Virus record (IMG/VR): IMGVR_UViG_3300042888_002665 | Strand: one strand, 5' to 3' | DNA from: a virus | Length of the DNA: 64,000 nt | Shown here: positions 2,365-23,780 of the stretch, one piece after another | Layout: every line of letters starts with the position of its first letter | Position numbering within the stretch: the stretch's first letter is position 1 | Translations under genes and position numbers: made by a program | The notes under the pieces: generated by a model | The model's database searches: none | Told to the model about the DNA's origin: nothing | The model's input: the letters and a program-made list of their open reading frames with translations, nothing else

Positions 2365-3074
2365 TAAATGTATGCTTGTAGGTTAAATTTTAACATTTCT
2401 AATACTTCTTGTTTAGCTGTTTTAGCGTGGTCAGCAAATACACCTGATACTTCTGATGTCATCATACTAGCACCCATATGCTTAACTCCGCGACACGATA
2501 CACAATTGTGAGTTGCATGCATCATTACCATAATACCTTCATTACCTACAATTAATTTATCCATAGCATTATGAATAGCCATAGTTAATTGTTCTTGAAT
2601 AGCACCTCTACGTGAGAAATGCTCAACTACACGATTTAATTTTGATAATCCGATTACCTTTGATTCAGGACCAGGTACATATGCAATATGACATTTACCT
2701 AAAATTGCTTGGTGGTGATGAGAACACATTGATATTACTGGAATATCACGCTCTAATACAATACCATTATAACCATCTGATGGGAATGCTGTAACATCGC
2801 CTAATACTTCGTAACGACCTCTCCATAAATCATTAACGTATGCTTTAGCAACACGTTTTGGAGTGTTTGATGAATTTGGATCGTTTTTCCAATCAACACC
2901 TAATGCGTCTAAGAAATTACCATATGCAACAGTTGCATTATCGATAATAGTTTGTTTTTCTTCTACGGTTAGAGAGCGCTCTTTACCTTCGGTTTTAATG
3001 ATTTCTTGTAAATGGAGTGAGATACCATTTGCATTACCTGAATTGGTAATTTCTAAATTGTCGATTTTACACAT
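2364..3074 (-). CDS. folE: GTP cyclohydrolase I
   Basis: TPKRVAK, SMCSHHHQ, GLSKLNRVV, QEQLT and HNCVSCRGV Zn/active-site motifs. Confidence 0.95.
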   Translation of the reverse strand: MCKIDNLEITNSGNANGISLHLQEIIKTEGKERSLTVEEKQTIIDNATVAYGNFLDALGVDWKNDPNSSNTPKRVAKAYVNDLWRGRYEVLGDVTAFPSDGYNGIVLERDIPVISMCSHHHQAILGKCHIAYVPGPESKVIGLSKLNRVVEHFSRRGAIQEQLTMAIHNAMDKLIVGNEGIMVMMHATHNCVSCRGVKHMGASMMTSEVSGVFADHAKTAKQEVLEMLKFNLQAYI

Positions 3075-20446: not shown

Positions 20447-21220
20447 CTAAACTTCCCTCTTGTCACCGTATGCAATGATATGATCTCGTCCTGAAAAATT
20501 ATATGAATGTGCTGTACAATAATCCAATACTATTGGATACATCTTAATTAATTCTTCACGAGTATCGCCAGCAGGCATAATCCATGTTTTATGTTTTGGT
20601 ATATTAAAACGTTTTCTGAATGCCTCAATTTCATGCATCAATTCATCTGTACCGTCCCATACTGGTTTGAAATGGTAATTCTTATGGTATGCTAATAATT
20701 GACGAATTGCATCATATTTTTCTCTATACTTATTATGTTGATCAATCATTTTCTGATCTACAATTTTACCTTGTGGTGTTTCAACACCAATTACTGGAAT
20801 TGAATTAGAGAATTTAGGTGATAATGAAATAACATCAATACGATGATCAGTAATTAGTGGATGTGATCCTTCGGTTTCAATAGTTACAATACCTTTTTTA
20901 TCATGTAATGCTTTAAATAAATTAATTATTTCATTACACATTTCCGGGTGCATTGTAGGTGATCCACCAGTTAACATCAAATGATTAATATCCCAATTGT
21001 CAGAAAAGAATTTCTTAATATCATCTAATGTATATTTACCCTTTTCTGGATGAATTGATGTATACCATGAATCACACCACCCACCTTCACCAAAGTAACA
21101 CCTATGAGTACATCCTGTAGTACGTACAATGATGTGTGGTTTACCAGCTAGTGAACCTTCAGTTTGAACGCAACGATATACTTCAATTATCGGTTGATTT
21201 TTAGTATAATCTAGTGCCAT
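20447..21220 (-). CDS. queE: 7-carboxy-7-deazaguanine synthase (radical SAM)
   Basis: VQTEGSLAGKP, RTTGCTHRC...WCDS, LTGGSP, TIETEG and SLSPK. Confidence 0.9.
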   Translation of the reverse strand: MALDYTKNQPIIEVYRCVQTEGSLAGKPHIIVRTTGCTHRCYFGEGGWCDSWYTSIHPEKGKYTLDDIKKFFSDNWDINHLMLTGGSPTMHPEMCNEIINLFKALHDKKGIVTIETEGSHPLITDHRIDVISLSPKFSNSIPVIGVETPQGKIVDQKMIDQHNKYREKYDAIRQLLAYHKNYHFKPVWDGTDELMHEIEAFRKRFNIPKHKTWIMPAGDTREELIKMYPIVLDYCTAHSYNFSGRDHIIAYGDKREV

Positions 21221-21434
21221 CTTGTTTTTCTTTTAATTTTAAACGTTTAGCTAATTTTTTATCTACAACTGCTTCTGCATTAATATTTACCTCAACGGTT
21301 TTCTTATTTGCATCGCGTACTTTAGTTTTCCATTCGGCTTTAGGAGCAAATGTCCATCCATGTACTTTTACTTTTAGATCAGCATCTACATCTGATACTC
21401 TACGGATTTCATCTCCTTTTTTGATACACTTCAT
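21201..21434 (-). CDS. Hypothetical basic protein
   Basis: 77 aa ORF overlapping the queE start. Confidence 0.7.
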   Translation of the reverse strand: MKCIKKGDEIRRVSDVDADLKVKVHGWTFAPKAEWKTKVRDANKKTVEVNINAEAVVDKKLAKRLKLKEKQDGTRLY

Positions 21435-21571
21435 ATTTTGAATTTTAATTTAATTAATTGTTGAATATAAGTAAGAAACTGTACATCACCAGCGAGTACA
21501 GATAAAATGTTAGGATGTGCATCGCCGCACGATCCTAACAAATGACTAATAATGTGTCTAATTTCTTCCAT
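21431..21571 (-). CDS. Small hypothetical protein (46 aa)
   Basis: MEEIRHIISHLLGSCGDAHPNILSVLAGDVQFLTYIQQLIKLKFKI; start overlaps the queC stop and stop overlaps the next start. Confidence 0.6.
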   Translation of the reverse strand: MEEIRHIISHLLGSCGDAHPNILSVLAGDVQFLTYIQQLIKLKFKI

Positions 21572-22425
21572 TATTGCTGATATTCTGCTAATACTTGTTC
21601 TACTGCTGCTTTAGCAACTTCCCAACTAACTGGACCTGTTTCATCTTCATATTGAACTGGATCTTTACGTCCTAAACGAATAAACGCTTCAATACGCTCA
21701 ACTGATGCCGCTGATTTGTAATCGCTATTTCCTGATGGATAAGGTTTGTATGATGTATTAGTACGTTTATATACTTCATCAAAATCTAAACCTAATTTCT
21801 CACAACATGCTAATCCGTCTTCCAAAATAGTAAATTTATTACCTTCTAAATACGGAGTATAGTGATATACTAATTCAGAATCCCAGTTACCAATTTTAAA
21901 TGCTTCCATATCAGCATCACGGAATTCCTGACGACAATCAGGGTAAATAGCGTGATCACCAGCGTGAATACCCATTGCAATTGCTACTTCTTGTTTATCG
22001 CCTTTAGTTGCAACTGATAATGCTGCTGCTTGGATTAATGAAGCGAAAATCTTATTACGATTAGGTACAACAGTTTCTTTCATGTTGTCTTGCTCGTAAT
22101 GTCCTTCTGGTACATCGTTTCCACCTGTAACTAATGCTGAATGAAGTAAATTTTGCAATCCATCTAATTTAATGATTTGATGTTTTACTTTAGGATATGC
22201 TTCTTCAAATCCACCAATTACTTGATCAGTATGAGTAACACGCATTGGAGCCGTATTAATATACTCAACTAACGATGCTGCACGTTCTAATTCAACACGG
22301 TGTTTTTGCCCATAATCAAATCCTAATGCTGTAACTTCATAGCCATTAGCTAATAAGTGAAGTAATAATGTTGAGGAATCCATTCCTCCGGATAATGATA
22401 AAACTGCTTTTTTTGTACTAGACAT
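21571..22425 (-). CDS. queC: 7-cyano-7-deazaguanine (preQ0) synthase
   Basis: SLSGGMDS PP-loop, FDYGQKH, VPNRN and HAGDHAIYPDCR. Confidence 0.93.
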   Translation of the reverse strand: MSSTKKAVLSLSGGMDSSTLLLHLLANGYEVTALGFDYGQKHRVELERAASLVEYINTAPMRVTHTDQVIGGFEEAYPKVKHQIIKLDGLQNLLHSALVTGGNDVPEGHYEQDNMKETVVPNRNKIFASLIQAAALSVATKGDKQEVAIAMGIHAGDHAIYPDCRQEFRDADMEAFKIGNWDSELVYHYTPYLEGNKFTILEDGLACCEKLGLDFDEVYKRTNTSYKPYPSGNSDYKSAASVERIEAFIRLGRKDPVQYEDETGPVSWEVAKAAVEQVLAEYQQ

Positions 22426-22445
22426 AAAATTTATAATATATAGTT

Positions 22446-22487
22446 GGAACGTATTAATTTATTGATCGATTAGTTCCGATAACCGAT
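22446..22487 (-). promoter_or_regulatory. H-type RNA pseudoknot in the queC 5' leader
   Basis: P1 ATCGGTTA/TAATCGAT; loop GGAAC pairs with downstream GTTCC across a 14-nt A-rich linker. Confidence 0.6.
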
Positions 22488-22492
22488 TATAT

Positions 22493-22509
22493 TAAATATA
22501 ATTAAGAAA
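22493..22509 (-). promoter_or_regulatory. Class B promoter-like motif upstream of queC
   Basis: TTTCTTAATTATATTTA. Confidence 0.55.
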
Positions 22510-22989
22510 TTAAATAGGCATGTATTCCTCTTCGTATGAAGCTGAATTACGGCCATTTTCAAATACTTCTACTTTAGCTACTCTAACTCTGTAATGTGTT
22601 TCGTCTTGAACAAATTCATTAATCTTTTTGAACAGATACTCAGCAAAACGTTCAGCACCTACATAAGGTAAAATACGTAATTGAATAATACCATCTTCAC
22701 CCATTTGCTTGAATTGCTCTAAATATGGATCATCGTCTGAGATGATTGTAGTATGATCTAATAAATAGTCAAACCATTGTTTTGGGTTCATACCATCGAT
22801 ATTTCCATTGGCACGTTTCATACCACCGAAATCCCATACCCAATTGCGTTCGTCTAAATCTCCTTCAAAATCTACTTTAAAGGATATAGCGTATCCATGT
22901 AAGAACCTACAGTGGGTTCCTTCTGCTCTCCATTGACGAAATACAGTGGAGAATCCATCAAATAATTTTGATGATTTGAATGTAATCAT
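22510..22989 (-). CDS. queD: 6-carboxy-5,6,7,8-tetrahydropterin synthase
   Basis: HCRFLHGY, LDHTT, AERFAEY and EVFENGRNSASY. Confidence 0.9.
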   Translation of the reverse strand: MITFKSSKLFDGFSTVFRQWRAEGTHCRFLHGYAISFKVDFEGDLDERNWVWDFGGMKRANGNIDGMNPKQWFDYLLDHTTIISDDDPYLEQFKQMGEDGIIQLRILPYVGAERFAEYLFKKINEFVQDETHYRVRVAKVEVFENGRNSASYEEEYMPI

Positions 22990-23780
22990 GATAAAAGTGT
23001 TCTAAAATGTTTGACGTTATATAATACATCAGAAATCTGCTGATCCGATAATTTCTGATCAAAGTATGTTTCTAACTTTTCTTTTGGTTTATCTAACAAT
23101 ACTTCAGATGGATATCTACCGTGTTTTAAACCGTAAATAACTGGATTAGATGTATCGATTGTTTTGATAAATGAATATTCTTTGCCTTTGTAGCTAGAGA
23201 ATTCATTAGGTAATGTAGCACCTAATAAATGATGGTGAATTGTTTTATTAAATCCATTTAATGATGGTAACATATTAACAAATTTAATACGTCCCGTCAT
23301 TAAACTTAATAATTCATTTTGATGTTTATATAATTCCTTAAAATAAACCCCAGCATGATTTAATGCAATGTGTGTATAACCTAATTCAACGAATTTACTG
23401 TATGTAAGCATTGCATCAGATACCGTTTTTGCTTGTACTACTGCCATTAAATTAGTAGTAGATGGAATTTTATCTATATAATAATCAATCCATTTTTTAG
23501 CGTTTTTAACAGTTGTTTGAGGGTTATTCCATGCATCAGGAACGATGAATATACTTGGCTTAATATCATTGATTTTCTCGAGTAAATCTTCGATTGTATG
23601 CGATACTCCTTCAAATAAACCATTGTCCATAATGATTAAATCACCACGTTCAGATGCACTTTTAAAGAATTGATAGTACTGTTTATTTTCTAATAAATGA
23701 GGTAAACAATAATGATAGTCATTAAACTTTAACGACTCATCTAATAGATCTAATGGTACTTCGTGTGAAATAAGGGCCAT
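22986..23780 (-). CDS. TGT-fold, DpdA-like DNA deazaguanine transglycosylase (putative)
   Basis: IIMDNGLFE, IVPDAW, MAVVQ, HLLG and TIDTS echo TGT/DpdA barrel motifs (DSGGF, PD, HxLG, DSS). Overlaps the queD start. Confidence 0.6.
   Translation of the reverse strand: MALISHEVPLDLLDESLKFNDYHYCLPHLLENKQYYQFFKSASERGDLIIMDNGLFEGVSHTIEDLLEKINDIKPSIFIVPDAWNNPQTTVKNAKKWIDYYIDKIPSTTNLMAVVQAKTVSDAMLTYSKFVELGYTHIALNHAGVYFKELYKHQNELLSLMTGRIKFVNMLPSLNGFNKTIHHHLLGATLPNEFSSYKGKEYSFIKTIDTSNPVIYGLKHGRYPSEVLLDKPKEKLETYFDQKLSDQQISDVLYNVKHFRTLLS

Follow-up and report, generated by a model that had tools for sequence, protein, structure and literature searches.

What, if anything, does the untranslated RNA ahead of a phage queC gene do? 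The question is raised by the 84-nt spacer between queD and queC in a viral DNA of 64,000 nucleotides (the whole stretch analysed here, referred to as the window), in which a sequence-only reading had placed a compact H-type pseudoknot and proposed a new cis-regulatory RNA tuning preQ0 supply for DNA modification. The window appears to derive from a large phage of Flavobacterium type, and the only cultured phages with DNA-level matches to it were the Immutovirus phages of Flavobacterium sp. LMO8. The pseudoknot is situated within a 7-deazaguanine DNA-modification cluster encoding DpdA, QueD, QueC, QueE and FolE:

2388–3065: folE, 20 kb from DpdA and queD
20447–21220, minus strand: queE
21201–21571, minus strand: two small ORFs (77 and 46 aa) between queC and queE, no Pfam match
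21571–22425, minus strand: queC (284 aa; PF06508, E = 6.7e-37)
between queC and queD, minus strand: 84-nt spacer containing the pseudoknot
22510–22989, minus strand: queD (159 aa; PF01242)
22986–23780, minus strand: DpdA homologue, directly upstream of queD, 34% identity to DpdA of phage immuto_2-6A
24434–26158, minus strand: ribonucleotide reductase, with a 164-aa ORF next in order

Homologues of QueF and of the formyltransferase DpdN were not found within the 64-kb window, so the modified base of this phage may be dPreQ0-like, unless the corresponding genes lie elsewhere in the genome. The Pfam match of the window QueC extends over residues 6–249 against 207 profile positions, implying insertions, and QueC in relatives is 262–317 aa long; bacterial QueC is roughly 220–230 aa.

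On the minus strand, positions 22446–22487 can be drawn as a 42-nt H-type pseudoknot of two helices, with each element at the coordinates originally given for it. The model supported here has a P1 of 6–7 bp, an L1 of 2–3 nt, a P2 of 5 bp, one invariant unpaired U and a 14-nt L3:

22481–22487, minus strand: P1 5' strand, AUCGGUU (7 nt; columns 2–8 of alignment A2, described below, pairing with columns 20–26)
22478–22480, minus strand: L1, AUC, which includes A22480 (the sequence-only reading drew L1 as UC, with A22480 in an eighth P1 pair that is unsupported)
22473–22477, minus strand: P2 5' strand, GGAAC, inside the P1 loop
22472, minus strand: single unpaired U separating P2 from the P1 3' strand, invariant in 48/48 leaders
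22465–22471, minus strand: P1 3' strand, AAUCGAU, its pairs including G22483·U22469
22451–22464, minus strand: L3, CAAUAAAUUAAUAC, 14 nt and A-rich, its last five bases AAUAC (22455–22451) invariant in 48/48 leaders
22446–22450, minus strand: P2 3' strand, GUUCC
22426–22445, minus strand: A/U-rich spacer of 20 nt between P2 and the queC ATG, no Shine–Dalgarno sequence

The UC of L1, P2 as GGAAC/GUUCC, the 14-nt A-rich L3 and the ATG 20 nt beyond P2 were all found where they had been placed. P1 had been drawn as AUCGGUUA (22487–22480) / UAAUCGAU (22472–22465), with 8 bp; both strands are present in the sequence, but the eighth pair, A22480–U22472, has to be given up. Its U is invariant, its partner may be A, C, U or G, and no double changes occur (column 9–19 of A2: AU 31, GU 6, unpaired 11 of 48). 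The outermost pair, A22487–U22465, is formed in just 28 of 48 homologues, and the inner six P1 pairs are well supported by the same 48 leaders. The single sequence alone is weak evidence for the knot; the nested minimum free energy of the spacer was no better than that of shuffles (z = −0.05), and when the 84-nt spacer was shuffled 20,000 times, a comparable knot (at least 7 bp plus at least 5 bp) arose in 609 cases (3%).

Homologous leaders were collected from viral contigs by a QueC-anchored search, which gave 80 loci with QueC identities of 68–98%, chosen by protein and not by RNA. The knot motif was carried by 45 of the 58 distinct 75-nt leaders from this first search, and alignment A2 comprised 48 distinct leaders. 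P2 played no part in selecting the sequences, and its covariation is therefore unbiased. Across A2 the proposed pairs form in 93.9% of cells, against 26–46% when the 3' partners are slid by 1–3 columns, and the covariation score is 0.445, compared with 0.06–0.11 for the slid controls. Changes on both sides were seen in all five P2 pairs and in three of the seven P1 pairs, with P2 pairing (columns 14–18 with 41–45) in 94.2% of cells. P1 column 3–25, for example, is occupied by UA 30 times, CG 9, AU 6, UG 2 and GC once, and P1 column 6–22 by GU 39 times, CG 8 and GC once. G·U pairs, in P1 at column 6–22 in 39/48 leaders and additionally in P2, exist only on the queC-sense strand, and the structure is therefore an RNA on that strand. 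The sequence-only reading had suggested checking whether the leader pairings are kept in related phages, and they are: the H-type pseudoknot is conserved and covarying in A2. It is real, and well over a hundred sequences from related phages preserve it by compensatory base changes. The invariant bases are grouped at the P1/P2 junction (the top U–A pairs of P1, the unpaired U and AAUAC). Covarying stems, invariant junction bases and a tie to the genes of one metabolic pathway are what would generally be looked for in a riboswitch, and this conserved, structured leader has all three, its association being with queC only.

The same architecture is found with other P1 sequences, namely CGCUU/AAGCG, CGUUU/AAACG, AGGUU/AACCU and AGGAU/AUCCU, and also in a shorter form. 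When the search was repeated with QueC of the cultured phage immuto_2-6A as anchor, 70 distinct leaders were obtained. Of these, 36 carry a form of ~34 nt with a 5-bp P1, a 2-nt L1, a GCC/GGC P2 and UAU as L2, its L3 closing with AAUAC-CU; the same form is present in immuto_2-6A, in the 76-nt spacer ahead of queC. Together with three leaders from the first search, these 36 made up alignment A3 (39 short-type leaders), in which 99.5% of P1 cells are paired and three P1 positions show compensatory change. P2 of the short form is nearly invariant (GCC/GGC, with one ACC/GGU swap), so covariation tests it poorly there; rarer relatives, inspected by eye, swap P2 to GUUCC/GGAAC, ACUCC/GGAGU or GCUAC/GUAGC. 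The unpaired U equivalent to U22472 is invariant in 39/39 short-type leaders, and L3 ends in AAUAC in 38 of the 39 and in AACAC in one. Common to both forms are thus a U–A pair closing P1, the invariant unpaired U 5' of the P1 3' strand and AAUAC, three features that in an H-type knot all fall at the P1/P2 junction. The length of L3 tracks that of P1 (14–16 nt with 6–7 bp, 8–11 nt with 5 bp), which is consistent with a loop that follows the groove of P1. A covariance model, R1, gave no match when run on the short form, and the apparent kinship of the two forms rests on architecture, invariant bases and the shared gene, not on model score.

Run on the window with filters off, R1 gave a single match at 61 bits, with the runner-up at 16 bits, and no further copies of the knot in the 64 kb. 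Across the 80 queC-anchored viral loci (485 kb) there were 55 matches, all on the sense strand and all directly before queC bar one. At the exception, L060, a 245-aa ORF with an HNH-like motif (GWHIDHIKPV...NLQPLWW; L060:2229–2966) and no Pfam match is inserted between knot and queC, and looks like a homing-endonuclease insertion. A DNA pattern made from P1 and L3 bases only matched 63 viral contigs, in 52 of which a QueC homologue starts ~25 nt downstream; most of the other 11 are truncated at a contig end. Both approaches put queC next, and the tie of the knot to this gene, claimed from the window, holds in the relatives. Upstream genes vary among relatives while queC is constant downstream, and the element precedes queC across QueC proteins of 63–98% identity as well as a far more distant QueC-like gene. 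Between about a quarter and a third of the related queC genes are without it.

The distant QueC-like gene belongs to a more GC-rich phage (L100/L144), in which the element is followed, 21 nt on, by the start codon of a 43-aa basic ORF. This ORF is Lys/Gly-rich (L100:2762–2893, also in L144) and is followed by a GC-rich hairpin (GGGAGGGTGG...CCACCCTCTC), after which come the divergent QueC-like gene (PF06508, 39 bits) and a 317-aa ORF without Pfam match; a SpoVS-family gene lies just upstream.

No real copy was found when 185,579 bacterial and archaeal species genomes were scanned with an exact pattern of the long-type consensus only. The seven matches returned were put down to chance, none having P2 by eye. 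R1 gave 19–30 bits for four of them (L145, L146, L147 and L149) and nothing for the other three; the two 30-bit matches are identical in sequence, and the one inspected, L145, is antisense inside a coding gene. By this exact long-type pattern for bacteria and the viral searches above, the element has been found so far only in phages.

In the window the queD stop codon is 22 nt ahead of P1, and queD is the upstream neighbour only there; the window is without small upstream ORFs, queD abutting the spacer directly. The sequence-only reading had set the knot at the 5' end of the queC transcript, directly after a promoter-like box (22509–22493). A sigma-70 scan found no promoter there. A possible Bacteroidota-type −7 box, TATATTTA, at 22500–22493 would put the transcription start at P1, and it is conserved only in close relatives sharing the queD–queC junction. 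The 5'-end placement does not carry over to many relatives, in which the stop codons of upstream ORFs, drawn from at least two unrelated families, fall within the element or past it, 0 to 58 nt after the P1 start; the element therefore appears usually to lie inside a polycistronic RNA. The ORFs stopping in or just past the knot are 66–99 aa long (L070:2741–2983, L014:2755–2967, L010:2339–2542 and L046:2730–2942, among others). One family ends in ...YPETFLK.YF and the other in ...IQKDLNSKEDKK, and the conserved RNA bases are doubly read as a variable C-terminal tail, e.g. ...GSRANRSIK.

Three other roles were rejected. An intrinsic terminator or attenuator was set aside since there is no U-tract and no terminator-like site after the element, and a stimulator of frameshifting or readthrough of the upstream gene because upstream genes and stop positions differ among relatives. 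A TGT/DpdA substrate mimic was discarded on inspection by eye, the loop having no conserved UGU.

preQ1-I pseudoknot riboswitches are the classical regulators of bacterial queC operons, and known RNA families were compared accordingly. An Rfam 15 scan of the window leader (2 kb around it and a 101-nt stretch) and of three variant leaders (L027, L037 and L035) returned chance-level matches only, with no other riboswitch or ribozyme family matched in the same sequences. The preQ1-I, -II and -III models, RF00522 included, gave no match at E up to 10 on 98–101-nt stretches of four variants. Full-text literature searches returned no paper on a phage queC riboswitch, on a riboswitch for preQ0 or on a preQ1 class beyond the known three; a 2024 review divides the preQ1 riboswitches into three classes with five motifs (PMC11625349). 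The comparison set for class I was types I–III, e.g. B. subtilis queC, T. tengcongensis, C. antarcticum and E. coli (PMC11625349).

Like preQ1-I (RF00522), the window element is a compact H-type pseudoknot formed by pairing of the P1 loop with the 3' tail, P1 and P2 covarying in this crossing arrangement, with an A-rich L3 along P1. It is likewise immediately upstream of queC (preQ1-I precedes queC or other queuosine-precursor genes) and has its conserved bases at the P1/P2 junction. Class I members have UC (type I) or AC (types II and III) ahead of the P1 3' strand, and the C reads preQ1 (PMC11625349). Here that specificity cytosine is an invariant U, in 48/48 long and 39/39 short leaders, and L2 of the window is this single U, whereas L2 of preQ1-I is a stretch ending in the specificity C. 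Unlike preQ1-I, the window element has a P1 of 6–7 bp and not 5, a freely covarying P2 of 5 bp, and a 14-nt L3 ending in the invariant AAUAC. The P2 3' strand is not placed at a Shine–Dalgarno sequence or terminator: P2 ends 20 nt before the AUG in the window and 18–22 nt before it in relatives, with no Shine–Dalgarno sequence in or near it in the window and no terminator after it. The element has, moreover, been seen only in phage contigs, and its gene context is DNA modification and not tRNA queuosine. The earlier statement that it is not a canonical preQ1-I, -II or -III member is borne out by the Rfam result and the U at the class I specificity position. It is probably a phage-only riboswitch candidate, preQ1-I-like yet distinct, that matches no catalogued RNA family.

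Further from class I, the leader of T4 gene 32 offers a phage parallel: there too a pseudoknot in the mRNA leader is separated from the start codon by an unstructured stretch rich in A and U. The T4 operator nucleates the cooperative binding of a single-strand-binding protein, the product of gene 32 itself, whereas the product of queC is a biosynthetic enzyme, with no binding protein known or indicated. As in the uncoupled preQ1-I knot of C. antarcticum (PMC10018353), the knot lies upstream of the initiation region without sequestering a Shine–Dalgarno sequence, and the corresponding steric attenuation may operate here; that case, however, involved engineered spacers of ≤10 nt in a host that uses the Shine–Dalgarno sequence, whereas the spacer here is a natural one of ~20 nt in a host type blind to it. 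The preQ1-II (RF01054) and preQ1-III (RF02680) riboswitches are also pseudoknotted and sense a 7-deazaguanine, as the phage RNA may do, but they are HLout folds of ~80–100 nt with four or five helices, against two helices in 42 nt here. These folds, with their extra helices, lie ahead of queT transporter genes in Bacillota (PMC11625349).

The reading we prefer, and to which we give somewhat better than an even chance, is that the knot acts in cis on queC as a riboswitch for a 7-deazaguanine through steric control of translation. The original proposal of a cis-regulatory RNA for preQ0 supply stands in its structural part, a conserved and queC-tied RNA without an Rfam family; the part concerning regulation and ligand is taken up here in conditional form. 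The invariant junction bases (the U–A pairs, the unpaired U and AAUAC) would make up a putative small-molecule pocket, whose ligand would be a 7-deazaguanine of the phage pathway, most probably preQ0, with CDG, ADG or preQ1 as possible alternatives. In immuto_2-6A, which encodes QueF and DpdN, all guanine is replaced by fdPreQ1 (PMC10516641). The element occurs in genomes with QueF (G003 and G008, both 100% complete, and G007, 94% complete) and in CheckV-100% genomes without a QueF match (G001, G004 and G006). Carriers both with and without QueF point to a metabolite that they share upstream of preQ1, that is, preQ0 (the QueC product), ADG or CDG; preQ1 could come from host QueF in the carriers that lack the gene. 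Since U and not C occupies the specificity position, class I recognition is not simply transferable to the element. Near-complete relatives of 154–183 kb differ in QueF (G001, G004, G006 and G010 versus G003, G007 and G008; these records stand behind leaders L073, L042, L198, L019, L038, L209 and L160), and the final 7-deazaguanine base probably differs among them. Variant type and QueF presence showed no clean correlation in the genomes of the relatives.

With regard to control of queC, P2 ends 18–22 nt before the AUG in 46/48 homologues. When 27 leaders were folded by partition function, no base pairing that joins the knot to the start region proved to be conserved, and the predicted accessibility of the start region was ~0.5–0.7 with or without the knot locked, so no classical expression platform is visible. 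Bacteroidota ribosomes ignore the Shine–Dalgarno sequence; what tunes initiation in these hosts is the structure of the leader, together with a few adenines upstream (PMC6847099). Repression of translation by a preQ1-I knot survives a shift of up to 10 nt away from the ribosome-binding site (PMC11625349, PMC10018353). From this type of host and the constant knot–AUG distance of ~20 nt we infer steric hindrance, which, given that there is neither a terminator nor a conserved knot–start pairing, would be the simplest model. The folded, ligand-bound knot would abut the 30S platform and hinder 30S loading or re-initiation, and by shortening the unstructured A/U-rich landing region it would turn queC translation down. 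In the many relatives in which upstream translation runs into or through the knot, it would unfold the knot repeatedly, and control may there act on re-initiation.

Proteins could use such a leader as well. T4 gene 32, T4 regA and E. coli rpsO/S15 are protein-binding leader operators, and phages commonly use leader structures in this way, so QueC or another phage or host protein might bind the knot and repress or activate queC translation. An operator was also the second option named in the sequence-only reading. We consider it unlikely. The specificity of the element for one gene would agree with it, and the absence of a visible alternative-pairing platform would suit entrapment or a steric mechanism; QueC, however, is a PP-loop ATPase for which we know of no RNA-binding activity, and the element is kept across its wide range of QueC proteins, including the distant QueC-like gene. 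Its invariant bases form a compact junction cluster and not an extended surface, and no partner gene travels with it at the loci inspected, where flanking genes vary. Less probable again is a constitutive structural element without effector, which would set a termination–reinitiation rate or protect or mark the queC segment of the mRNA for processing. The fixed distance to the AUG, the upstream ORFs ending around the knot and the lack of a switchable alternative fold are all in its favour, yet such an element should precede other genes too and is found only before queC in the window and the 485 kb, and strictly conserved unpaired bases at the junction exceed the needs of a roadblock. Both explanations are disfavoured because of the single-gene specificity and the compact invariant junction.

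To a divergent but true preQ1-I riboswitch, binding preQ1 in the class I manner, we assign only a slim chance, below that of either explanation above. The fold type and the downstream gene are the same, and the short variant has class I dimensions (5-bp P1, 2-nt L1, 3–4-bp P2, ~34 nt; PMC11625349). Against this stand the failure of RF00522 to match any of four variants at E up to 10, the invariant U in place of the class I C before the P1 3' strand (PMC11625349), a P2 without Shine–Dalgarno sequence and the finding that some complete phage genomes carry the element but no QueF. This explanation is disfavoured because the model score, the specificity base and the placement of P2 all depart from class I membership.

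Taking up again the 7-deazaguanine riboswitch as the preferred reading, a more far-reaching version, which we hold tentatively and at somewhat short of an even chance, is that the knot represents a fourth class of 7-deazaguanine riboswitch, exclusive to phages. As such, it would be a sensor of preQ0 or another pre-preQ1 compound with a pocket rebuilt from the U and the cytosine of AAUAC, would control translation by bulk only in Bacteroidota blind to the Shine–Dalgarno sequence, and would meter a guanine-replacing precursor. At 34–42 nt, with many natural variants and a cultured pair in which it is present (immuto_2-6A and Flavobacterium sp. LMO8), the RNA is ready for work at the bench. Binding of a 7-deazaguanine would make it a new riboswitch class, with phages as the only carriers found so far. 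Regulation goes unmentioned in the main paper on the 7-deazaguanine pathways of phages (PMC10516641), and the knot would then be the first regulatory element described for phage 7-deazaguanine DNA hypermodification. It would also show riboswitch control of translation where ribosomes ignore the Shine–Dalgarno sequence, and would mean that the phage meters the very precursor that replaces guanine in its DNA.
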